Shown: positions 3,019 through 22,313 of the stretch, in pieces | Position numbering within the stretch: position 1 is the first letter of the stretch | How the letters are laid out: every line of letters begins with the position of its first letter | Assembly: GCA_020353515.1 (NCBI GenBank) | Contig: CP070695.1 | Coordinates: forward strand, 2,436,913 to 2,460,912 | Reading direction: 5' to 3' | DNA from: Candidatus Heimdallarchaeota archaeon | GTDB taxonomy: Archaea > Asgardarchaeota > Heimdallarchaeia > Hodarchaeales > Hodarchaeaceae | Length of the DNA stretch: 24,000 nt | Made by a program: the position numbers and the translations under genes | Notes under the pieces: model-generated | Database searches by the model: none | Seen by the model: only the letters and a program-made list of their open reading frames with translations | Told to the model about the DNA's origin: nothing

Positions 3019-6000
3019 TCAATGTCTTCTTCGCAAGAAAACAAGTACTGATAATATAGCAAATCCTGCAATTAACGCTGTAAAGCCTGGTGTTGATACA
3101 CTAGGACGCTCGATACTTGTGGTTGATGTGGATGGTTCAGGTTCTGTTGTGGTGGGAGCCGTAGTACCGTCAGGCTCAACTGGAATCGTAGTTGTAGGTT
3201 CTGGTTCAGGTATCTCAACCGTGAACCAAACACTTGTTTCCCCTGTATTTCCGACGAGATCACTCGTATAGATAACAAGATAATGTGAACCTTCTGATAA
3301 TGACCCTAGTAAAGTATTACCTGTGATAGTTATATTTGTGGCCCCATCCAGAGAGTACCCAATCCAGGAAGCGGGTTCGTCGATTGTAAAGTCAATCCAG
3401 ACTTCATCTGTTGTATATGTGACATTCATCGGACCAGCTAGGTCAATATTTGGATTAAGGGTGTCTATTGTAAACCAATCAACAGTAAAACTACCTGAAT
3501 TTCCTGCAAGATCGTTGGTATAGATGGTAACATTATGGGTGCCTTCCGAAAGGGAGTCTAGTAACTTGTTTTCTGTAATTGTCACATTTGCAGCCCCATC
3601 GAGAGAATACCCAATCCACGAAGTGGGTTCATTCACAGTAAAGTTTAACCAAATACTGGAGCTGGAATAACCTTGATTGGTAGGATTAGTAATGGTTATC
3701 TTAGGTGGATTAACGTCGTATTGACCCCATACTCGGAAGGAAAAATCAAACCCAGGATCTGATTCTTCTAAGCTACTGATTCCCCGATAATAATTGGAAC
3801 TCACTCCAGGGATACCTCTCCAGTAATAACGATTTGCTGGTCCAGTAGATGGGGTATCAGTGCAAATGGAAATGTTGTAGGACTGACCAGCTATTAAGTG
3901 TAATGAACCAGGGATCGAGATATTCACCCAACCCAAAATGGTGATATCAGTTGGAAGTATCATTGTTTGCCATAGAATGTTTTGACCTTGTGATATATTA
4001 ATCAAAACATTGCCAGGATCTCCATCTCTTGTGATATAAAGATCTAACCGTGTTAAGGTATCATAGACTGGGATAAATTCTTGCCAGCGGATTAAATCCT
4101 CATCAAGCATGACAGAAAGGCCTGTACTATCTTGGACTTGATCTAAATATGCACTTCTATCGCAGAACAACCCTGTGGTCTTGAACGCATAGTCGAATGT
4201 AGGATTACTTGCCTGTTTATTAGTAATTCCCCGTGTATAATTAGATATTGGATGGCCCATCCATAAATAATATTGGGTCAAAGGGATGTAGGGATCCTCA
4301 CTCCGTACATAAATATAGTAAGAATTCTCTGGAATTAATGACAATGGCGCAGGGAAAGATATACTCACCCAACCTTCTGTCACAGGCATATCAGCTTCGA
4401 AGATAGTAGTAATCCAGAGTGTTGATTGATCATCAGTAATATTCACTAGGACATTCCCAGGATCACCAATTCTTTTGAAGTAGAGGTCTAGTTGAGTTAA
4501 CGTGGAATAATATGGTTTGAATTCTTGCCACGCATTCCAAGAATTACTAAAGAAATAACCTTCATCAATACTATCCTGGATTTGATCTGTAAACCCACTA
4601 AGATCACTCGATCGGATCCATGTCCGAAACGCGTAGTCATATGTAGGCCAACCTGACTGCACATTTGTATCACCTCGAGTATAATTGGATACAATGTGAC
4701 CGCTCCAGGCATAATAATGTGTACCTGAAACCATAGGATCAACACTCCGAATATAGATATAGTAGGAATTTCCAGGAATTAAAGGAAGAGCGGATAGGAA
4801 GGAAATACTCACCCAGCCACCTGGTGCTGGGATCTCCGCTTGGGAGACAGTGGTATTCCAAACAGTGGTCTGACCATCGGTAATATTCACCAAAACATTC
4901 CCTGGATCCCCCATTCTCTGGATATTGAGATCAAGTTGAGTTAACGGGGCAAATAATGGTACAAATTCTTGCCATGCGTTCCATGAATCAGTAAAAGCAA
5001 AACCATAATTCACAGCTTCTTGTACTTGGTCTAGGTAAGTAGCTGTATCACTTGGAGTACTCCATGTTCTGAAAGCAAAGTCATATGTGGGCCAACCATC
5101 ACCAACACTAGGCATTCCTCTATAATAATTGGACTTAATAAATCCCCTCCAGACATACTGGTTGTCAACATCAGGAGAAGGAGCATCACTTCCAACAGAA
5201 ATAAAATATGATTGTTCAGGAACCAAAGGGAGGGCAGGATCAACTGAAATGTTTATCCAACCAAAAGTGTTGATATCTGCTTCCAAGATGGTGGTATTCC
5301 AAAGCGTTCTGTGTCCATCACTTATTTTAATTTGCATATTCCCAGGATTGCCGTATTTGTTAATATAAAGATCCAAACGAGTCAGGGTTGAATATAAAGG
5401 CTTGAATTCTTGCCAGCGGATTACTTCAGCTTCAAACCAAAAGCCGTAATTAACTCCGTTTTGTGTCTGGTCTAAATATATCTCTCTGTCATTTGATAGA
5501 CTCCATGTCACAAAAGTAAAATCAAAATTAGGTTGAGTAGTGATGCTACTAACTCCGCGTGTATAATTAGAGTTGAGATGCCCATCCCAAGTATATCGAT
5601 CACTAGTGGATGTAGAATCTGTGTCACTCCTAACATAGATGTAATACAACCGCTCTGGGATTAAAGGAAGCGCTGATTCCAGAGTAATGTTCACCCAAGT
5701 AGCCCCACTCATAATATTTGCTTCCAATACAGTGGTGTTCCATAAGGATTGCTGGCCATCTGTAATGTTAACCAACATATTCCCAGGATTACCAATTTTA
5801 TCAACATTAAGATCTAATCGAGTTAAAGTAGAATACATTGGTCTGAACTCCTGCCAGCGAATTACTGTGTCATCAAACCAATAACCATAGTTCTCGTCTC
5901 CCTGTGTTTGGTCTAGATCTTCACCTATCTCATAAGCTCCTGATGTTTGAAATATAAAAAAGCCTGATATAATCAGCAAGAACATTCCTAAAATTAAGAA

Positions 6001-6039
6001 CATTGACTTTTTCTGTCTTTTAATAGTGAACATTATCAT
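3019..6039 (-). CDS. Large repeat-containing cell-surface (S-layer-like) glycoprotein with PGF-CTERM archaeosortase sorting signal
   Basis: 1006-aa ORF. Signal peptide (KRQKK + hydrophobic core + SGA). Five ~147-aa repeats and two ~85-aa Ig-like repeats. Thr/Pro/Glu-rich linker (EPEPTTTIPVEPDGTTAPTTTEPEPSTSTT). C-terminal PGFTALIAGFAILSVLVFLRRRH, i.e. PGF + TM + basic tail. Many N-x-S/T sequons. AGGAG lies upstream of the ATG. Confidence 0.88.
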   Translation of the reverse strand: MIMFTIKRQKKSMFLILGMFLLIISGFFIFQTSGAYEIGEDLDQTQGDENYGYWFDDTVIRWQEFRPMYSTLTRLDLNVDKIGNPGNMLVNITDGQQSLWNTTVLEANIMSGATWVNITLESALPLIPERLYYIYVRSDTDSTSTSDRYTWDGHLNSNYTRGVSSITTQPNFDFTFVTWSLSNDREIYLDQTQNGVNYGFWFEAEVIRWQEFKPLYSTLTRLDLYINKYGNPGNMQIKISDGHRTLWNTTILEADINTFGWINISVDPALPLVPEQSYFISVGSDAPSPDVDNQYVWRGFIKSNYYRGMPSVGDGWPTYDFAFRTWSTPSDTATYLDQVQEAVNYGFAFTDSWNAWQEFVPLFAPLTQLDLNIQRMGDPGNVLVNITDGQTTVWNTTVSQAEIPAPGGWVSISFLSALPLIPGNSYYIYIRSVDPMVSGTHYYAWSGHIVSNYTRGDTNVQSGWPTYDYAFRTWIRSSDLSGFTDQIQDSIDEGYFFSNSWNAWQEFKPYYSTLTQLDLYFKRIGDPGNVLVNITDDQSTLWITTIFEADMPVTEGWVSISFPAPLSLIPENSYYIYVRSEDPYIPLTQYYLWMGHPISNYTRGITNKQASNPTFDYAFKTTGLFCDRSAYLDQVQDSTGLSVMLDEDLIRWQEFIPVYDTLTRLDLYITRDGDPGNVLINISQGQNILWQTMILPTDITILGWVNISIPGSLHLIAGQSYNISICTDTPSTGPANRYYWRGIPGVSSNYYRGISSLEESDPGFDFSFRVWGQYDVNPPKITITNPTNQGYSSSSIWLNFTVNEPTSWIGYSLDGAANVTITENKLLDSLSEGTHNVTIYTNDLAGNSGSFTVDWFTIDTLNPNIDLAGPMNVTYTTDEVWIDFTIDEPASWIGYSLDGATNITITGNTLLGSLSEGSHYLVIYTSDLVGNTGETSVWFTVEIPEPEPTTTIPVEPDGTTAPTTTEPEPSTSTTSIERPSVSTPGFTALIAGFAILSVLVFLRRRH
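3214..3723 (-). repeat. Two tandem ~82-88 aa Ig-like/beta-sandwich coding repeats
   Basis: aa 773-860 and 861-942 align with each other: WLNFTVNEPTSWIGYSLDGAANVTITENKLLDSLSEGTHNVTIYTNDLAGNSG versus WIDFTIDEPASWIGYSLDGATNITITGNTLLGSLSEGSHYLVIYTSDLVGNTG. Confidence 0.75.
3724..5934 (-). repeat. Five tandem, diverged ~441-444 bp coding repeats (about 147 aa each) inside the surface protein
   Basis: The landmark (Y)LDQxQ recurs at aa 42, 189, 336, 484 and 632. Shared blocks are xWQEFxPxYSTLTxLDL, GxPGNxLVNITDGQ, LWNTT, GWVxIS, LPLIPxxSYYIYVRS, SNYTRG and FDYAFRTW. On the plus strand the complement of the WQEF codons recurs near 4085, 4528, 4972, 5413 and 5855. Confidence 0.85.
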
Positions 6040-6237
6040 ATTAATTATTATCTCCTTGCATGTAAGTGATGACTCTTAAAAATTCTCCTTCCCGATGTAT
6101 AAATAATTTTCTAAATGAAGGATTTTCTCTCGTCTATAAGGATAAGGAATCCCAACATTAAAGAGAAGGAGATTAATTCAATTTTATACCAAGTAAATAT
6201 CATAAAATAAAAAAGAAAGTATTACGGGGTAATTTTT
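6040..6237. promoter_or_regulatory. Divergent intergenic promoter region with TATA-like boxes for both flanking genes
   Basis: TATAAATA at 6098-6105 lies ~59 nt upstream of the minus-strand ATG at 6039. TTTTATAC at 6182-6189 lies ~50 nt upstream of the plus-strand ATG at 6238. This is pattern matching only. Confidence 0.3.
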
Positions 6238-7278
6238 ATGCCAATTGAAACAAAAATTACCAATATGTTCGGAATTAAACATCCTATTATTGCTGCACCA
6301 ATGGCTCCTTTCCACACTACTGAGCTAACTATTGCGGTTTCCGAAGCAGGGGGATTAGGTGTTCTTTCTCAAATTGGTCTTCTAGATGAGGACAGAAATC
6401 CTGTTGATGTGATGAAAAAGAATATGCAGTATGTTGTTGAACATACAGACAAACCTTTCGGATTTAATATTCGAACTTCTAGATTAGAACCCTTTGCATC
6501 AGCTTTATGTTCTGAAATCCCAAAATTCATCCTAGGAAATCGAAGAATAAAGGAGCAGTGCGTTTATGCTCTAACAAGTGCAGGCTCACCAAAACCACTC
6601 CCAAGTTCTAAATCGTTTCAGGAATTGAAAAGGAGCTCTCAGATTAAGCATTTTCATGTTGCGCCAGCTTTATGGTTAGCTAAAAAATGTGTTGATACTG
6701 AAGTCGACGGATTAGTTGTTACAGGTAATGAAGGGGGTGGACATCAATCATATGAAAAGGTGAGTTCCCTTGTACTTCTTCAGCAAGTACAGCAAGAATT
6801 TCCAAATATTCCCCGTATTGCATGTGGAGGTTTTGCGACAGGTGAGGGATTAGCTGCAGCTCTATCACTTGGAGCAGGCGCAATTGCCATGGGATCCCGT
6901 TTTATCGCTTCAAAAGAATGTGAATTTCATGATACATACAAGAATGTCGTTCCACCTGCTAAAGCTCAAGATACCATACTTGTTACAGGGATATTAGGTC
7001 CTATTCGACTGTGGAAGAATAAGTATAGTCTCCACCACGATTTGGTAGCTACTAAGGAGGAAAAGATAACCCAGGAATCAGGGATGGATAAAGAAGAATT
7101 GGGGGCAGCAGCACGAGCATATGATTTAGCATACCAAGGAAATGTCGATGATGGGGCAGTTCTTCTAGGACAAAGTATTGGTCTGATTGAAAGCATTGAA
7201 AATGTTTCAGTTATAATTGAAAGAATAGTGAGAGACGCTGAAAAAGCGATTAAAGATACAGTAAGTTATTTCAAATGA
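6238..7278 (+). CDS. Nitronate monooxygenase (2-nitropropane dioxygenase) / FabK-like FMN-dependent oxidoreductase
   Basis: 346-aa ORF. The N-terminus FGIKHPIIAAPMAPFHTTELTIAVSEAGGLGVL matches the NMO family signature (PIIQAPMAG...AAVSNAGGLG). Later motifs are VTGNEGGGH and GAGAIAMGSRF. Confidence 0.8.
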   Translation: MPIETKITNMFGIKHPIIAAPMAPFHTTELTIAVSEAGGLGVLSQIGLLDEDRNPVDVMKKNMQYVVEHTDKPFGFNIRTSRLEPFASALCSEIPKFILGNRRIKEQCVYALTSAGSPKPLPSSKSFQELKRSSQIKHFHVAPALWLAKKCVDTEVDGLVVTGNEGGGHQSYEKVSSLVLLQQVQQEFPNIPRIACGGFATGEGLAAALSLGAGAIAMGSRFIASKECEFHDTYKNVVPPAKAQDTILVTGILGPIRLWKNKYSLHHDLVATKEEKITQESGMDKEELGAAARAYDLAYQGNVDDGAVLLGQSIGLIESIENVSVIIERIVRDAEKAIKDTVSYFK

Positions 7279-7391
7279 TGAAATTATACAAAATAGATTG
7301 AGGGATTTATACAAAAAATAAACACAAAGTTGGTTTACATACAATCCTCTCTGAAACCCAGAAGGTACCACACTATCTACGTGATAAAATC

Positions 7392-9110
7392 ATGATTTCA
7401 CCAAATTCTGAAAAAGACCATTTAGGAAAAGACTTCATTCGTAAAATGATTTCGGAAGATGTGAAAAATAATAAAAACAATGGCCGAGTCCATACCCGTT
7501 TTCCTCCTGAACCAAATGGCTGGCTCCATATAGGCCATGCAAAATCAATTCATCTCAATTTCACTATCGCAGAAGAATTCAATGGATTATGTAATTTACG
7601 GTTTGATGATACTGATCCGGCAAAAGAAAGTATGGAATACGTTGAAGCCATAAAAAAAGATGTTCAATGGCTTGGGTTCGATTGGGAGGATAGACTCTAT
7701 TTTGCTTCAGATTATTTTGAACAGTTATATCAATTTGCTATAGAACTGATTAAAGCTGGTAAAGCGTATATCTGTGATTTGAGTGTTTCCGAAATTAAAG
7801 AACAAAGAGGAACCTCTGAAGAACCAGGGATTGAAAGTCCGTATCGGAACCGATCAGTAGAGGAAAATATTGATTTATTCGAGAGGATGCGTAAAGGAGA
7901 GTTTGAAGACGGTTCCCGAGTGTTACGGGCTAAGATTGATATGACTTCTCCTAATATGCTAATGCGTGATCCAATTATGTACCGAATCAAGAGAGAAGCA
8001 CATTATAGAACTGGAAACGATTGGGTAATTTATCCCAGTTATGATTATACTCACGGTCAGTCTGATGCAATCGAAGGAATCACACATTCACTCTGTTCTT
8101 TGGAATTCGAAACTCATAGACCTCTTTATAATTGGTATAGAGATCAATTGTTAACTTTAAACTTACTTAAATTCTGCCCAGAGCAGACTGAATTTTCACG
8201 ATTGAACTTGACATATACTGTTATGAGCAAACGACGCTTATTAGAATTGGTTGAAGGTGGACATGTTTCTGGTTGGGATGATCCCCGTATGCCAACTCTT
8301 GCTGGTTTACGAAGACGTGGACTGCCCCCTGAAGCTATTAGGCGTTTCTTAGCAAAAGTAGGCATTTCTAAAAGGGAGAACTATATTGATGTGGGTCTCT
8401 TAGAATCCTGTATTCGTGAGGAATTGGATGAAACGTGTAAACGTGTGATGGCTGTATTACGGCCTTTAAAGGTTATCATCCTGAATTATCCTGAAGGTGT
8501 TGTTGAAGAGTTAGAGGCATCCAATCATCCTAAAGATTCAAGTATGGGCTCGCGAAAAATTCCATTTTCACGGATACTGTATATAGAGCGTGATGATTTT
8601 CTTGAAGATCCACCTAAAAAGTTCTATCGATTAGCTCCTGGAAGAGAAGTCCGATTACGATATGCCTATTTCATCAAATGTGTTGATGTTATCAAAGACG
8701 GAATAAATGGCGAGATTAAAGAAGTACATGTGACTTATGATCCAGAGACTAAAGGAGGATTTGCTCCAGATGGACGTAAAGTGAAAGCTACTCTCCACTG
8801 GGTTTCAGCGAACCATGCAATTCCTGCAGAAGCACGTTTATATGATCGGCTTTTTATTAAGGAAAATCCAATGGACGATGCTAACTTCATTAAAAATCTA
8901 AATACTGATTCATTAGAGAAGCTAACCTGTTTTGTGGAATCAAGTCTTGTGAGTGCGGCTCCAGGAATGAGATACCAATTTGAACGATTAGGATATTTCT
9001 GCGTGGATTCAGTTGACTCCTCAGGTAAACGACTGGTCTTCAATCGAACAATAACTTTACGCGATACTTGGTCTAAGCTCAAACAATCCCAAAAAAGGAT
9101 GAAAAAATAA
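7392..9110 (+). CDS. glnS: Glutaminyl-tRNA synthetase (glutamine--tRNA ligase), bacterial type
   Basis: 572-aa ORF. The HIGH region is [23 protein letters not shown] and the KMSKS region is VMSKR. Blocks [69 protein letters not shown] and [12 protein letters not shown] are collinear with E. coli GlnRS as I remember it. That includes the C-terminal beta-barrel anticodon-binding domains. Confidence 0.92.
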
Positions 9111-9169: not shown

Positions 9170-9241
9170 CAGCCCCGCCCAGAATCGAACTGGGGTTATA
9201 GGATTCAGAGTCCTAAGTGATAACCGCTACACCACGGGGCT
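9170..9241 (-). tRNA. tRNA-Gln (anticodon CUG)
   Basis: Minus-strand read: AGCCCCG TG GTGT AGCGGTTA TCAC T TAGGA CTCTGAA TCCTA TAAC CCCAG TTCGATT CTGGG CGGGGCT G. This gives a clean cloverleaf with a 7-bp acceptor and 5-bp anticodon and T stems. The T-loop is TTCGA, the anticodon is CTG, and no CCA is encoded. Confidence 0.88.
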
Positions 9242-9286: not shown

Positions 9287-9359
9287 CAGCCCCGCCCAGA
9301 TTTGAACTGGGGTCGAGAGGGTCAAAGCCTCTTATGCTAGTCCACTACACCACGGGGCT
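9287..9359 (-). tRNA. tRNA-Gln (anticodon UUG)
   Basis: Minus-strand read: AGCCCCG TG GTGT AGTGGACTA GCAT A AGAGG CTTTGAC CCTCT CGAC CCCAG TTCAAAT CTGGG CGGGGCT G. The anticodon is TTG. The acceptor stem and T stem are identical to the neighbouring tRNA-Gln(CUG). No CCA is encoded. Confidence 0.88.
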
Positions 9360-12362: not shown

Positions 12363-13154
12363 TTACAGAAATGTGAGTAAGAATAATGTTGAAATACCGA
12401 CTAATATGAAAATTAAACCCATAGCAAATGTTAAAGTTGTTTCATTTAACCTGTTTGAAAATACGGAACCCACACTACCACTAATTACCGCCCCAATGCT
12501 AATAATCAATCCATATTCAAAATTAATGTATCCCTGAATTGAATACCCTATCACACCTGAAAGAGCAATGATTGCCATGATCGCTGTCGCTGTCCCAACA
12601 GCAGTATGAGGGGGATACTGGAATATCACCAATAACACGAAAATTATCATCATCCCGCCCCCTGCTCCAAATATTCCACTCATTAAACCGATAAATAATC
12701 CGATCGATGATATAACAATCTCTTTTTGCCGTTCTGACTGAAATATTACTTTTTGTGATCCTGTTTTTTCAGGAGTCTTTCGTTGTTTGAAACTCCTAAA
12801 CAGGATGATTATCCCGATTCCAATGAAAATCAAGCAAACTAAATTACTTAAAGAAGCTTCACCTGTATTTACAGCCACTAGTACTCCTATTTGGGAACCC
12901 ACTAAGGCAGTAATAATTAATAGGAGAGTAGCGCGTAAATCGACTTTTTCCTTACGAAAAAAAGATATAGCAACAATGGTGGCACCAACCATATCAACGA
13001 ATAAACTTGTTCCAATCGCAGAATAGATTGACGTTGAGTAGAATAGGAGGAGGATAGGGACAACAAACACAGATCCGCTTACGCCAAGAAGACTGATAAT
13101 AAGTCCCACAGCTAATCCTAATATCAAGAGGCTACTTAGAGTTAAGAAATCCAA
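12363..13154 (-). CDS. TSUP / TauE-SafE family anion (sulfite-type) permease
   Basis: 263-aa polytopic membrane protein with two internal halves. Each half has G-rich motifs (LLGVSGSVFVVP and IFGAGGGMMII). The start is TTG, preceded by AGGTGA 6 nt upstream, immediately after the stop codon of the upstream gene. Confidence 0.78.
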   Translation of the reverse strand: MDFLTLSSLLILGLAVGLIISLLGVSGSVFVVPILLLFYSTSIYSAIGTSLFVDMVGATIVAISFFRKEKVDLRATLLLIITALVGSQIGVLVAVNTGEASLSNLVCLIFIGIGIIILFRSFKQRKTPEKTGSQKVIFQSERQKEIVISSIGLFIGLMSGIFGAGGGMMIIFVLLVIFQYPPHTAVGTATAIMAIIALSGVIGYSIQGYINFEYGLIISIGAVISGSVGSVFSNRLNETTLTFAMGLIFILVGISTLFLLTFL

Positions 13155-13167
13155 CGTTTTTCACCTC

Positions 13168-14154
13168 TCAGATCATTTCTGGATTGAGTGTTCGATTATC
13201 AAACTGAGTTTTCAACTTATTGTATTCCATACGACTAAATGGACACTCTTTAATGCAAACAGAACATCCATGATAGTCTAAAAACACAGGAAAACAGTAC
13301 TCATTTGTAATATGCGTCAATAGGCCATTTTCATGTAAAGTGGGTTCTTCTTGAATAGCAAATCCAGGGCATTTTCGGATGCAACGACCACACGTTTGAC
13401 AAAAGTGTGCTATCCATTCGTGAGGATTTCCTTGCGCAATTGGTAAATTCTCAATACTAGTGTAGATAGCTGTGAGTCTTACTCGTGGCCCGTTTTCAGG
13501 AGTGATTATTAAACCATGTCTCCCATGGTATCCAATTCCAGCAAGTTCTGCAAGAGGAGGATATAGTACTAAACCTCCCAACGGATGCCCTGCTTGAACA
13601 GAAAAACCTTCTTGTCTAAGAAATGTAGTCAAGCGATTTGATGTTTTACCAAGATCATCATATGTTTGCATTATCATATAAGCTGTTTCTGAACTTGGTG
13701 CTTTCTCTATTTTATCTCTATCCATTTCCATTGAAAGAATGATGACATTTTCGTGTAAAACAGCCTTATCTTTAAAAATCAATTTTCTTGGCAGCTTTAT
13801 ATACCCGATTGACGAGATTCCTAGTGATTTTGCATAGTTCTCAAAGGCTTGAAGTTGTTCATCTGTAATCGTTTTTTTCGAAACAACAGGATTTTGATCA
13901 ATTGTTGTTAATGATCTCTTGATATTCTTGATATTAGAGGGCATTACTCGCATTGTTCGAAATGAAGTAATCGGAAGTCTAGAATAATGCTTTACACCTT
14001 CGAGTACTATATCAAATCGCTCTGGTGATTCCTTATTACTCTTGATAACATTTTTATGACTGCTAAACTTAGATTCTTTGTTTAAAATACTCTGAAATTG
14101 CCATGTGGCCAAAGAATTCACAAAAAAATTCATTAGTCTAGCTCTGATACCCAT
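13168..14154 (-). CDS. QueG / reductive-dehalogenase-superfamily iron-sulfur protein (2 x 4Fe-4S ferredoxin motifs)
   Basis: 328-aa ORF. The core AELAGIGYHGRHGLIITPENGPRVRLTAIYTSIENLP resembles the QueG/RdhA block. It is followed by CQTCGRCIRKCP and CSVCIKECP cluster motifs. No twin-arginine signal is seen. Confidence 0.6.
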   Translation of the reverse strand: MGIRARLMNFFVNSLATWQFQSILNKESKFSSHKNVIKSNKESPERFDIVLEGVKHYSRLPITSFRTMRVMPSNIKNIKRSLTTIDQNPVVSKKTITDEQLQAFENYAKSLGISSIGYIKLPRKLIFKDKAVLHENVIILSMEMDRDKIEKAPSSETAYMIMQTYDDLGKTSNRLTTFLRQEGFSVQAGHPLGGLVLYPPLAELAGIGYHGRHGLIITPENGPRVRLTAIYTSIENLPIAQGNPHEWIAHFCQTCGRCIRKCPGFAIQEEPTLHENGLLTHITNEYCFPVFLDYHGCSVCIKECPFSRMEYNKLKTQFDNRTLNPEMI

Positions 14155-16481: not shown

Positions 16482-17162
16482 TTGATCTTTTTAATATTCA
16501 CTGATGTAACAGTAATTGATATTATTGATAATAGCCCCTCGTTCGATTTTAATCCTCCTATTACTCTTGTTTTAACTGCTTTATATGGCTCACTCAGTGG
16601 AGGATTGTTCGCTTTTATCTCATTGCGATCGAGAATCCGAACGTTTAAAGAACCAGTTAAGGATTTAATACCAATATATCCATTTTATCTAGGGTTCACT
16701 TTAATTGGAGGATGTTGCCTCATATTTATTGGTTTCATTATAATTTTTGATCCAGTTCTAGGTTCTATGTGGCCATGCTTACGGATGTTCTTATCTTCCA
16801 CTATCTATCTTATCTTCTTATGGTTTCCAACAATGGAATCAATGTTTGAGATCTTTTTTCAAAGCCGTATGGACAGAATTGAAACAGTACTGGGTAGGGA
16901 CAAAGTATTAGACATTATCGATCACGATCTAGCTAATGTTACACAGATTCTCCATACATATTTTGAAACAATTCAACTATCTGATCAGGAGAGAGAGTTT
17001 TTAAAGAAGCAAGTTGACCGCATGAACAAACTAATAACAGAATCACGAGCTATAGTGATACACGAAGATGATATGTTAGTACAGGAATTAATGAGATTTT
17101 ACAAATCAACACGTGTTCAAAACAATCTTTTAGATAAATCCAAAACAAAAAAAGAAGCCTAA
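16482..17162 (+). CDS. Membrane protein with 4 TM helices plus a HisKA-like (DHp) domain and no ATPase domain; continuation of the preceding ORF
   Basis: 226-aa ORF in frame with 16092-16430. The frame is open from 16431, and the first TM helix (HFIAVFYFFCIGILIFLIFT) starts upstream of the called TTG. The C-terminal region LDIIDHDLANVTQILHTYFETIQLSDQEREFLKKQVDRMNKLITESRAI fits the histidine-kinase H-box/DHp pattern. No N/G1/G2 boxes follow. Confidence 0.55.
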   Translation: MIFLIFTDVTVIDIIDNSPSFDFNPPITLVLTALYGSLSGGLFAFISLRSRIRTFKEPVKDLIPIYPFYLGFTLIGGCCLIFIGFIIIFDPVLGSMWPCLRMFLSSTIYLIFLWFPTMESMFEIFFQSRMDRIETVLGRDKVLDIIDHDLANVTQILHTYFETIQLSDQEREFLKKQVDRMNKLITESRAIVIHEDDMLVQELMRFYKSTRVQNNLLDKSKTKKEA

Positions 17163-17318: not shown

Positions 17319-17939
17319 ATGAAAACAAATCAAGTAATAAAAATAATAATTCCATTAGTACTCTTATTGGGTGCCGCTACTGCTTTTATTGTTGCGGTTA
17401 TTGGTAGCCAGCAAGTGAATACTACAGCAGAGACTCAAGAGTCAAATCAAGCTACTAGTGCCTACATAGCTTTCCTCTATATTGAAGGTGTTGATGGTGA
17501 AGCTCAAGCACAGGATCATGAAAATTGGATTGAGGTTCTTGCTTATTCCCATAATGTTATGACCGCGGATCCAACAGGTGCAGTCCGCACTGCAGGCTCA
17601 GTACAGCACGCTCCACTTCGGATTACCAAAATGGTAGATAAGGCCTCACCTAAACTGTACGAAAAGTGTGTTAACGGTGAAACGATCGTTTCAGTAAAAC
17701 TGGATTGCTGCACAGCCTTTGGCGAAGACTTGAAAGTGTTCTATCAAATTGAACTGCAGAATGCAATGATCACTTCAGCTCAAGATTTTGGTATAGTAGC
17801 AGGAGAAGGAATTCCTACTGAGACTGTTTCTTTCACATATGAATCCATTAGATGGACATATTCGGAATTTGATGCTGCAGGTCAAAAAAAGGGAGATATA
17901 CAAACACCTTGGATCTCCACAGAGACCTCAGAAACCTAA
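17319..17939 (+). CDS. Hcp/TssD-family (type VI secretion tube protein fold) protein with N-terminal signal peptide or signal anchor
   Basis: 206-aa ORF with AGGTGA 7 nt upstream of the ATG. aa 1-30 are K-rich plus a hydrophobic helix (IIIPLVLLLGAATAFIVAVIG), followed by a polar linker. From aa ~48 the sequence aligns block by block with Hcp1: IAFLYIEGVDGEAQAQDHENWIEVLAYSHNV, LRITKMVDKASPKLYEKCVNGE, YQIELQNAMITS and PTETVSFTYESIRWTY. Confidence 0.85.
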   Translation: MKTNQVIKIIIPLVLLLGAATAFIVAVIGSQQVNTTAETQESNQATSAYIAFLYIEGVDGEAQAQDHENWIEVLAYSHNVMTADPTGAVRTAGSVQHAPLRITKMVDKASPKLYEKCVNGETIVSVKLDCCTAFGEDLKVFYQIELQNAMITSAQDFGIVAGEGIPTETVSFTYESIRWTYSEFDAAGQKKGDIQTPWISTETSET

Positions 17940-17966: not shown

Positions 17967-18641
17967 ATGAAAAAGTCGAAGACTCCTTTTTTAATAGTCA
18001 TATTCGCATTAGTCGGTTGTACCTTGAGCCCATCTATAGCTAATCAACAAACTATCGACATTCTACAAGTAACGAAGATTGGTTCATCTGTCTCAATTTT
18101 TCTAGATTTTGATCTGAACTCAACCTCCCAGCTTGATTCAAATAAATCATTAGCAGTATTAGTCGTATTTACTCAAGATGAACCATTCGTAATTGAGGCA
18201 ACGATGTTATTCTTCCATACAGTAGAAGAAGACTTCCTTTTCTGGATGCTTGGAGATCCCTATACTCAAGCCCAGATCTGGCAATTAGGTGTTGAAAATG
18301 AGCATTTTCAAACTCAAAATGAATTATTAACTTTGAATTTCATAGAATACCTTGGTATCACCAAACCCGAAATAAATCCTTTTGTGATAGCTTTAATCGC
18401 TTCAGGTGAAGTAAATAATCAGACAAATGATTTTAGACCAATTTTAGAGCAATTTGTAATGTTTTTACCTATACATTATGAATTTCCAAGCATAGAGCAG
18501 CCAGGTACTACTGAAGAGACATCAGCTAAAAAATCGTCTCAAGGAAGCGTGGGTGGTCTTACACCAGGTTTTACAATCCTTTCTACTGTGGGTATCTTTC
18601 TTTCAACACTCATTGTACTAAGATTCAAACGGAAAAAGTGA
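17967..18641 (+). CDS. Putative lipoprotein with PGF-CTERM sorting signal, otherwise uncharacterised
   Basis: 224-aa ORF starting 27 nt after the Hcp-like gene. The N-terminus MKKSKTPFLIVIFALVGC carries a lipobox-like LVGC. The C-terminus has a Thr/Ser/Glu linker, then PGFTILSTVGIFLSTLIVLRFKRKK (PGF + TM + basic tail). Confidence 0.72.
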   Translation: MKKSKTPFLIVIFALVGCTLSPSIANQQTIDILQVTKIGSSVSIFLDFDLNSTSQLDSNKSLAVLVVFTQDEPFVIEATMLFFHTVEEDFLFWMLGDPYTQAQIWQLGVENEHFQTQNELLTLNFIEYLGITKPEINPFVIALIASGEVNNQTNDFRPILEQFVMFLPIHYEFPSIEQPGTTEETSAKKSSQGSVGGLTPGFTILSTVGIFLSTLIVLRFKRKK

Positions 18642-21411: not shown

Positions 21412-21974
21412 TTAATCTAAGGCATCTAAACTCTCAGGTGGAGCTGCAATTTTTCCATTCAAGATTGGATCATTAGTTTCTTCTAGCCACTGGACTAACA
21501 TGGTTTTTAGGCTTCCCTTTATCTTAGAATACTCATGTTTGTTAGCTAGATTCTTCATTTCAAACGGATCATTCTCTAGATCATACAGCTCTTCTTCTTC
21601 TATAGGGATATTAAAATCAGGATTTTGTTTAATGTATATCTCTGTGGATTCTGTTGATGCAAAACCAATTGGAATTTCGAAGCGAGTTGGAATAGTCTCA
21701 AAATTCATAATAAATTTCCATTTTCTTGTACGAATTGCTCGCATTGCATTATAGCAATCATGATATGTCAATTCTGAGAAGATATGTTCTCGTTCTTTGT
21801 ACTCTTCGCCTTTTAACAATGGATAGAAACTTCGGCCTTTAACATCTTCTGGAACCTCCACTCCTACTAATTCTGACAATGTTGGGTATAAATCGATATT
21901 GGATGTCCATAACAACCAAAATAATCTCCAGTGTCATGAGTTATAATTAGGATAATGTTTGGGGTAGAATTCAT
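21412..21974 (-). pseudogene. Sulfatase (arylsulfatase family) remnant with a large internal deletion and frameshift
   Basis: The ATG at 21974 opens MNSTPNIILIITHDTGDYFGCYG, a typical sulfatase N-terminus. That frame then runs into a TAG at 21867-21869. A different frame (21412-21915, TTG only, no ATG) encodes the sulfatase C-terminal region (TSNIDLYPTLSELVGVEVPEDVKGRSFYPLL...LYDLENDPFEMKNLA). The catalytic C/S-x-P-x-R segment and the central ~250 aa are absent. Confidence 0.72.
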
Positions 21975-22028: not shown

Positions 22029-22313
22029 TTAATTTAACTCAAAACTATTCCAATTAGATTGTTTGACCATTAATGGAGACATTTTACTAAGTTGTTCTTT
22101 GAATACCCCCGATTTTGATACTTTAATGGCATCCTCTTTACTTTGCCAATAAGTAAGAAATGATAATTTATTGTTGTCTTGATTTATGACAAGTCTCCAA
22201 CCTTCCCATCCTTGTTGTTCTTGAAATAATGGGATTATCTCACATTCAATGAGAGTTGCTACATTCTCAGTATTTTCGCCTTTAATAAGGCCTGTAAATA
22301 AATTTGTATACAT
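22029..22313 (-). CDS. Small cytoplasmic protein, possibly ABM/Dabb (ferredoxin-like) fold
   Basis: 94-aa ORF with an ATG start. The pattern of a hydrophobic beta strand followed by W..S.EDA (LSFLTYWQSKEDAIKVSKSG) resembles antibiotic-biosynthesis-monooxygenase-like domains. This is a weak call. Confidence 0.4.
   Translation of the reverse strand: MYTNLFTGLIKGENTENVATLIECEIIPLFQEQQGWEGWRLVINQDNNKLSFLTYWQSKEDAIKVSKSGVFKEQLSKMSPLMVKQSNWNSFELN

Follow-up and report, generated by a model that had tools for sequence, protein, structure and literature searches.

Glutaminyl-tRNA synthetase (GlnRS) has long been described as an enzyme that archaea do not possess. Reviews as late as 2022 state that there is no archaeal GlnRS and that Gln-tRNA is always made through the amidotransferase GatDE (PMC9499178, PMC8762117), and both cite Tumbula et al. 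(2000) for the finding that archaeal tRNAGln is no substrate for GlnRS and for the proposal that this constitutes a barrier. The identity elements of Escherichia coli GlnRS include the discriminator base, base pairs 1-72 and 3-70, G10 and the anticodon, and their mutation costs up to 10^5-fold in activity (PMC9976931). The discriminator is G73 in bacterial tRNAGln and A73 in archaeal tRNAGln, and A1-U72 is the identity pair recognized by GatDE (PMC9499178). Here we describe glnS, a gene for a bacterial-type GlnRS, in a 24,000-nucleotide stretch (hereafter the window) of a 4.94-Mb contig of Candidatus Heimdallarchaeota archaeon (GCA_020353515.1, CP070695.1, positions 2,436,913 to 2,460,912), where it adjoins two tRNAGln genes that are archaeal in origin and that carry the discriminator G73. 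The enzyme probably descends from a single old transfer from bacteria and would charge these retuned native tRNAs directly.

The textbook statement that archaea lack GlnRS, from which the original prediction for this locus started, was outdated before the present analysis, and it is not this gene that overturns it. A GlnRS of Heimdallarchaeota B3_Heim has been annotated in GenBank since 2018 (PWI47144.1), a 2024 preprint mentions a Hodarchaeales GlnRS in passing as a neighbor of coxABC (10.1101/2024.07.04.601786), and one review asserts a transfer of GlnRS to archaea without giving detail (PMC8879553). In the literature that we searched, we found no analysis of the phylogeny of archaeal GlnRS, of the Thermoplasmatota clade described below or of an association with the tRNA discriminator, and no paper on GatDE in Hodarchaeales.

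The glnS gene (7392..9110, forward strand) begins with ATG and has an uninterrupted reading frame of 572 codons for amino acids. Its product scores 715.4 bits against the NCBIfam glnS model TIGR00440 (cutoff 425.8) and 345 bits against the archaeal gltX model for glutamyl-tRNA synthetase (GluRS), which is under the cutoff of 401.75 for that model. Three Pfam domains, tRNA-synt_1c (PF00749, residues 33–346), tRNA-synt_1c_C (PF03950, residues 349–450) and tRNA-synt_1c_C2 (PF20974, residues 467–539), define a Rossmann catalytic domain followed by two β-barrel anticodon-binding domains. In phmmer searches against the PDB, the protein is collinear with bacterial GlnRS across residues 12–563, with scores of 696 bits for the Pseudomonas aeruginosa enzyme (5bnz) and 666 bits for that of E. 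coli; human QARS (469 bits), yeast Gln4 (407 bits) and GluRS (at most 275 bits) score lower. Thus, the original description of an intact 572-residue GlnRS, collinear with the E. coli type, is confirmed by the reading frame, the family model, the Pfam domains and the PDB alignments, and the protein does not cluster with GluRS.

The resemblance to bacterial GlnRS, as represented by the E. coli GlnS structures (1GTS/1QTQ family) and by P. aeruginosa 5BNZ, extends over the full length (55% identity to E. coli), the three-domain architecture, the catalytic, pocket and anticodon residues and the loop that binds the acceptor end. Residue numbers were transferred from an alignment with GlnS of E. coli K-12. 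The HIGH signature (residues 46–49, 7527..7538, forward strand) corresponds to E. coli His40–His43, and the VMSKR motif of the KMSKS class (residues 277–281, 8220..8234, forward strand) places Lys280 at the position of E. coli Lys270. Further GlnRS-specific blocks, found like these motifs where the original prediction had led us to expect them, are located at residues 35–52 (containing HIGH), 67–76, 179–200 (ending in YRIK) and 528–539. Fourteen catalytic, pocket and anticodon-reading residues (R30, H40, H43, D66, Y211, C229, F233, Q255, K270, R341, R402, R410, Q517 and R520, in E. coli numbering) are identical in the window protein, and the same residues are kept in all 50 sequences of the archaeal clade defined below. 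Among them, Arg30, Asp66, Tyr211, Cys229, Phe233 and Gln255 form the glutamine pocket of the E. coli structures, and Arg341, Arg402, Arg410, Gln517 and Arg520 read the CUG and UUG anticodons. The window protein differs from the E. coli enzyme at two acceptor-stem contacts. In the bacterial-type acceptor-end binding loop, RGTSEEPG (residues 139–146, 7806..7829, forward strand), E. coli Leu136 is replaced by Ser142, and in the segment EFETHRPLY (residues 238–246, 8103..8129, forward strand), Asp235, an acceptor-stem specificity position, is replaced by Thr241. The other differences from the bacterial systems are the archaeal host and the presumed substrates, which have A1-U72 and C3-G70 in place of U1-A72 and G3-C70 in E. 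coli. The gene is predicted to encode a functional GlnRS, an annotation as secure as sequence alone allows.

Eukaryotic cytosolic GlnRS, such as human QARS (4YE6) and yeast Gln4 (4H3S), belongs to the same family, works alongside a translation apparatus of archaeal type and serves the direct route that the window protein is also predicted to serve. However, it shares only 41–48% identity with the window protein, has other indel states and is not its sister in the tree. Its appended N-terminal domain of ∼200–300 residues is absent from the window protein, whose catalytic core begins at about residue 30. The best NCBIfam score, 832 bits, is obtained with NF011291, a model of the Deinococcus-type GlnRS/YqeY fusion (PDB 2HZ7), but this match covers the GlnRS body only (profile positions 7–566 of 769). 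The YqeY/GatB-like C-terminal domain of the fusion is absent, as the protein stops at residue 572, and the PGAP name "GlnRS/YqeY fusion" is therefore unsuitable. Appended C-terminal domains were also seen in GlnRS proteins of ∼707 residues from Desulfobacterota (P0050, P0063, P0090, P0103 and ∼20 others; proteins are designated by P numbers and loci by L numbers), which carry a PF01588 tRNA_bind domain similar to EMAP/Trbp111.

Two tRNA genes follow glnS in convergent orientation. The tRNA-Gln(CUG) gene (9170..9241, reverse strand; ARAGORN, Rfam tRNA 62 bits) starts 60 nt downstream of glnS and has the anticodon loop CUCUGAA, while the tRNA-Gln(UUG) gene (9287..9359, reverse strand; ARAGORN, Rfam tRNA 57.5 bits) has the anticodon loop CUUUGAC. 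Together, the two isoacceptors read both glutamine codons. The original prediction had noted tRNAs with A1-U72 and without an encoded CCA on this contig, and the sequences of both genes agree with it; newly recognized here is that both are tRNA-Gln and that their discriminator is G73. The acceptor stem, AGCCCCG/CGGGGCU followed by G73, is the same in both genes. The tRNA-Gln(CUG) is 79–84% identical to other archaeal tRNAGln and 53–56% identical to bacterial tRNAGln. Both tRNAs are thus archaeal in origin, rather than imported from bacteria. Position 37 is A in both, compared with G37 in canonical archaeal tRNAGln, and of the E. coli identity set, G73, G2-C71, G10, U35, G36 and A37 are present, while the pairs 1-72 and 3-70 are inverted and position 38 is not U. 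Compared with the archaeal indirect pathway, which uses a GluRS that is non-discriminating (ND-GluRS) and GatDE, the locus retains the archaeal tRNA body and the A1-U72 pair, and a GluRS gene lies beside glnS in the related locus L084. It differs in having a dedicated GlnRS and in the G73/A37 state of the linked tRNAGln, where the canonical state is A73/G37.

To place the gene phylogenetically, we assembled 120 close homologues, 79 GlnRS from named bacterial genomes (∼25 phyla) and 150 representatives of clusters at 50% identity, the last of which include eukaryote-type proteins with N-terminal extensions of 150–300 residues. The 79 bacterial loci and one archaeal locus were among the matches listed in a contig scan; other archaeal contexts were obtained from the encoding contigs. 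Neighbor-joining (NJ) trees were calculated from Scoredist distances (318–322 sequences, 513 columns, 100 bootstraps) with two Hodarchaeales GluRS as the outgroup. In the first run, 19 named archaeal and 31 unnamed proteins form one clade with a bootstrap of 90, and a second run recovers the named archaeal proteins as monophyletic in 93 of 100 replicates. Identity across this clade is 68–90%, with the full length retained. At least 23 of the 125 named bacteria (median 116) fall outside the group formed by the archaea and their sister sequences in every replicate, a group that eukaryote-type sequences join in only 2 of 100 replicates, and a median of 11 nodes separates the archaeal clade from the eukaryotes. 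The mean identity of the window protein is 61% to the 125 named bacterial sequences, 45% to 44 eukaryote-like sequences and 36% to archaeal GluRS. At all indel blocks that discriminate between bacteria and eukaryotes, including the acceptor loop at 136–141, the archaeal clade has the bacterial state. Bacteria and the archaeal clade both have this loop, which binds the acceptor end; in 77–95% of the eukaryote-like sequences it is deleted.

The GlnRS/GluRS tree therefore places the archaeal clade within bacterial GlnRS. Horizontal acquisition of glnS, one of the two origins that had been considered originally, is supported by this nesting, by the identities and by the bacterial indels. The other proposal, that GlnRS is already the norm in this clade, also turns out to be correct, as ∼50 clusters are labelled Hodarchaeales, Heimdallarchaeota or Promethearchaeota; such wide, vertical inheritance had been named as a circumstance that would lower the novelty, and it leaves the annotation unaffected. 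By contrast, the expectation that the placement of this gene would matter for the origin of GlnRS is not borne out. Since the clade is nested deep within bacterial GlnRS and not beside the eukaryotes, the gene says nothing about the origin of the eukaryotic enzyme. Taken together, the trees indicate one old transfer from bacteria to archaea, probably followed by vertical descent. Among bacteria, the sequences closest to the clade in the tree come from Desulfobacterota/Syntrophia-like anaerobes of sediments (Syntrophales, Thermodesulfobacteriota), and we do not name a donor because support for the nearest bacterial branches is weak. Some unnamed proteins with ∼70% identity that fall just outside the clade were considered as possible archaeal members and rejected, as their contigs carry TilS, bacterial GluRS, RuvABC and HU.

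The two substitutions at acceptor-stem contacts are distributed unevenly within the archaeal clade. Of the 50 archaeal-clade sequences, 31 have threonine at the E. coli 235 position, which none of 124 bacterial sequences has, while 13, all within the terminal subclade of the window protein, have serine at the E. coli 136 position, also unseen among the 124 bacterial sequences. L136 and D/N235, the bacterial residues, are still found in the early archaeal branches; T235 is typical of the crown, and the terminal group that includes the window protein has S136 as well. D235T and L136S are thus specific to subclades and do not define the clade, and when we screened strictly for sites fixed for one residue in bacteria and for another in archaea, one trivial V/I site was the only result. 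The presence of bacterial residues in the early branches and of derived residues in the crown fits a transfer from bacteria to archaea and subsequent adaptation to the new host.

Several observations establish that the host is truly archaeal. The cluster of the window protein, which sits on the 4.94-Mb contig, includes PWI47144.1 of Heimdallarchaeota B3_Heim, and the closest relatives (70–90% identity) are from metagenome-assembled genomes (MAGs) named Hodarchaeota, Hodarchaeales, Heimdallarchaeota or Promethearchaeota. One of these relatives (L081, CP070760.1) is located on a closed 3.16-Mb Heimdallarchaeota chromosome. Synteny with the window is seen in a Promethearchaeota MAG, whose locus L082 encodes, in the order of the window, an M24 peptidase, a DUF4082 surface protein, an NMO-family oxidoreductase, glnS, tRNA-Gln, a histidine kinase and a radical-SAM enzyme; the gene order of the window is also found in L001. 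In L084 (10001-13795) and L086 (2467-6153), two loci that branch early in the archaeal clade, the genes for ribosomal protein L40e and RtcA lie ahead of glnS, and an archaeal-type GluRS gene follows it in tandem; the GluRS of L084 scores 545 bits against NF003169. The composition of glnS (GC content 0.38, GC content at third codon positions 0.28, codon usage correlated with the rest of the window at r = 0.94) is like that of its neighbors, the contig has archaeal tRNA genes at 60 nt from glnS, and the ∼50 distinct archaeal-clade clusters (at 90% identity) are drawn from many samples. The archaeal genome context and the composition of the gene, both raised originally as points to be checked, are hence consistent with each other, and the uniform composition implies that the acquisition is old.

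The relationship between the discriminator base and GlnRS was analyzed in a sample that was not chosen by the presence of GlnRS. Metagenomes were scanned for the 5′ signature of archaeal tRNAGln, and adding the earlier loci to the hits brought the total to 90 archaeal-type tRNAGln genes. A73 is present in 69 of these 90 genes, and no GlnRS gene is close to any of the 69; the 14 archaeal tRNAGln genes adjacent to GlnRS, by contrast, all carry G73. Within the metagenome sample by itself, GlnRS adjoins 5 of 9 G73 genes, compared with 0 of 48 A73 genes (Fisher p = 3e-5). G73 is thus linked to GlnRS among archaeal-type tRNAGln genes. The arrangement of glnS with a nearby G73/A37 tRNAGln recurs in L001, L082, L083 and L085, where, as in the window, the tRNA gene lies 39–2918 nt from glnS. 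In L085, an early-branching locus from a MAG labelled 'Thorarchaeota', two G73/A37 tRNAGln genes with encoded CCA (12980-13171) are found beside glnS, and a third tRNAGln(UUG) gene with A73, G37 and an abnormal C33 lies 3.3 kb from this pair (16503-16578). The A73 copy could be what is left of a GatDE-type tRNA, or it could belong to a dual system. The same contig also carries an IS605/TnpB element.

Close pairing of the two genes was also observed in bacteria. A tRNAGln(CUG) gene is located within 250 bp of glnS in the bacterial loci L002, L014, L021, L046 and L072, which are mostly from Desulfobacterota relatives near the archaeal clade. As several bacteria show it, the linkage between tRNA and synthetase is not unique to archaea. 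Archaeal tRNAGln genes in L118, L137 and L132 are interrupted by introns, situated either in or close to the anticodon loop or in the region of the D-loop, and ARAGORN miscalls these tRNAs as tRNA-Arg or tRNA-Gly, or misses them.

A second group of archaeal GlnRS was found among the metagenome cases. Five of them (L107, L122, L128, L150 and L158) fall into a separate GlnRS group, which also contains P0279, comprises at least 120 clusters (one bears the name Thermoplasmatota archaeon) and is 59–61% identical to the window protein. This group lies outside the Hodarchaeales clade in 97 of 100 bootstraps and inside it in 3. Its context marks it as archaeal, since the transcription factor TFB (399 bits) is encoded in L150. 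The Thermoplasmatota-labelled group (L128, L150, L158; P0279) resembles the window locus in that a bacterial-type GlnRS adjoins an archaeal G73 tRNAGln(CUG), but here the tRNA gene is immediately upstream of glnS on the same strand and has G37. The Thermoplasmatota-type G73 tRNAs are 86–93% identical to A73 tRNAs in the sample, suggesting a local origin. Exchange of a cassette of GlnRS and tRNA between the two archaeal clades was considered as well and is unsupported, as the clades are apart in 97 of 100 bootstraps and the tRNAs seem to have arisen locally. Two archaeal lineages therefore pair a bacterial-type GlnRS with native G73 tRNAGln.

We propose that an ancestor of Heimdallarchaeia/Hodarchaeales gained a bacterial glnS in a single old horizontal transfer and that the gene was inherited vertically from then on. 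The enzyme would charge the host's own archaeal tRNAGln with glutamine directly. These tRNAs carry G73 and A37, which a bacterial GlnRS is known to require, while the weak first pair A1-U72, G2-C71, G10, U35 and G36 were compatible beforehand. The retuned isoacceptor genes stand directly beside glnS, and within the archaeal clade the enzyme has changed in turn at its two acceptor-stem contacts, with the substitution of E. coli D235 by T preceding that of L136 by S. We regard this account of a working bacterial-type GlnRS, an old transfer and retuned native tRNAs as probable on the sequence evidence. Charging activity is predicted, and G73 and A37 would be what makes these tRNAs substrates. The tRNAs may have been retuned after the transfer, or G73 may have existed before and permitted it, and GatDE may have been lost.

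A number of observations weigh against this account. The window tRNAs have C3-G70, compared with G3-C70 in E. coli, their weak first pair is inverted (A1-U72 versus U1-A72), and position 38 is A in tRNA-Gln(CUG) and C in tRNA-Gln(UUG), compared with U38 in E. coli. In three members of the archaeal clade (L081, L084 and L086), no tRNAGln lies closer than 10 kb to glnS, and seven further G73 genes are without GlnRS in the available sequence. In locus L092, whose GatD marks it as Aciduliprofundum-like, a G73 tRNAGln(CUG) gene with an intron (78-205) lies 5.6 kb from gatD-gatE (5799-8245). G73 alone is therefore no proof of a GlnRS; it may pre-date the transfer, and it is compatible with the GatDE route. 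As to the tree, NJ is a distance method, the internal bacterial nodes and the donor have bootstraps of 0–20, and the root rests on two GluRS.

The case of L092, with a G73 tRNAGln and gatDE on one contig, also bears on the possibility of a dual pathway, in which GlnRS would act beside a retained ND-GluRS/GatDE system, with the G73 tRNAs shared or partitioned between them, as in bacteria that keep both. Every tRNA linked to GlnRS retains A1-U72, the identity pair of GatDE, and L085 has its extra A73/G37 tRNAGln at a distance of 3.3 kb from the G73 pair. On the other hand, the abnormal C33 of that A73 copy could mean decay, both isoacceptors adjacent to glnS in the window are G73/A37, and neither an A73 tRNAGln nor gatD or gatE was detected within the 24-kb window, the latter two by profile searches of the window out of the 4.94-Mb contig. 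A tblastn search with a GatB seed located real gatD/gatE genes only in L092 and L132 among the loci; in L132, GatE is 1.9 kb from an A73 tRNAGln, and L092, being Aciduliprofundum-like, carries no information on the genome of the window. We consider a dual pathway a serious possibility, although its chance is somewhat below even. The proposed direct charging by GlnRS could be questioned on other grounds if the protein were a GlnRS-like paralogue that does not glutaminylate tRNAGln and acts, for example, as a GluRS or in regulation. The residues S at 136 and T at 235, unseen in 124 bacterial sequences, could be read in this way. This is highly unlikely, however, given that no archaeal-clade sequence lacks any of the residues for the glutamine pocket, ATP binding or anticodon reading, and that the clade combines full length and 68–90% identity with tight linkage to tRNAGln.

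Two further explanations concern where the gene came from. The preprint cited above reports Hodarchaeales to be the archaea most closely related to eukaryotes (10.1101/2024.07.04.601786), and the glnS-GluRS tandem in L084 and L086 superficially looks like a duplication, so that GlnRS might be imagined to have arisen in the Asgard lineage leading to eukaryotes, with the Hodarchaeales gene as ancestor or sister of the eukaryotic one. However, the tandem GluRS is 34% identical to GlnRS and scores as archaeal gltX, and the protein is closer to bacterial than to eukaryotic GlnRS (61% versus 45%), has the bacterial indels and lacks the eukaryotic N-terminal domain. With eukaryotes joining the archaea-plus-sister group in 2 of 100 bootstraps and lying a median of 11 nodes away, such a vertical, pre-eukaryotic GlnRS is extremely unlikely. 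The 59–69% identity of the protein to GlnRS of many bacterial phyla would also be expected if a bacterial glnS fragment had been binned or assembled into an archaeal genome. This probability is negligible: the named relatives, the synteny with an independent MAG (L082) and the equal gene order in L001, the archaeal neighbors, including tRNA genes at a distance of 60 nt, and the composition and codon usage that match the flanks make contamination or chimerism very unlikely, as do the ∼50 archaeal-clade clusters from many samples and the relative on the closed chromosome CP070760.1. An old transfer from bacteria into an archaeal host hence remains our preferred explanation.

The locus is a well-supported counter-example to the statement that archaea lack GlnRS, and it comes from the order currently held to be closest to eukaryotes. 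As a gene, glnS is unremarkable and comes from bacteria, and the account of the origin of eukaryotic GlnRS is unchanged. What it adds is a synthetase linked to retuned native tRNAs, a natural experiment on a foreign synthetase in a supposedly incompatible host, so that the idea of a tRNA orthogonality barrier becomes directly testable. This is of relevance to the design of orthogonal pairs of aminoacyl-tRNA synthetase and tRNA. More speculatively, the tRNA barrier to GlnRS may have been crossed at least twice independently, in Heimdallarchaeia/Hodarchaeales and in the Thermoplasmatota group, each time with a change of the native tRNA from A73 to G73 and with the tRNA and synthetase genes kept paired. 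The Hodarchaeales crown would have gone further (A37, T235, S136), with GatDE maybe fully replaced. We put this forward tentatively and find it rather more doubtful than not. If true, the closest archaeal relatives of eukaryotes would have gained a direct, eukaryote-like route to Gln-tRNA by convergence.

Some other genes in the window encode surface or secreted proteins. The product of 3019-6039 (reverse strand) is a secreted protein of 1006 residues with five repeats of ∼170 residues (weak DUF4082 matches), Ig-like Big_13 repeats and a Thr/Pro-rich stalk. Its C-terminus consists of PGF, a helix and RRRH and has no match to a PGF-CTERM model; a syntenic copy is present in L082. The product of 17967-18641 (forward strand) also ends with PGF, a hydrophobic helix and a basic tail, and scores 21.6 bits against the Heimdall-CTERM model NF045529, below the cutoff of 24. 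The two PGF-CTERM proteins reported originally thus both have the PGF, helix and basic tail, but only one of them matches a model, and this match is below cutoff. Directly upstream of this Heimdall-CTERM-like gene, an open reading frame (ORF) at 17319-17939 (forward strand) encodes an Hcp/TssD domain, the type VI secretion tube protein (T6SS_HCP 126 bits, TIGR03344 88 bits), with an N-terminal hydrophobic anchor, which is unusual both for an archaeon and for an Hcp protein. Finally, 21412-21915 (reverse strand) encodes the C-terminal part of a sulfatase only (SGSH_C/Sulfatase_C), with an ORF of 94 residues upstream at 22029-22313, and is probably a disrupted sulfatase gene.

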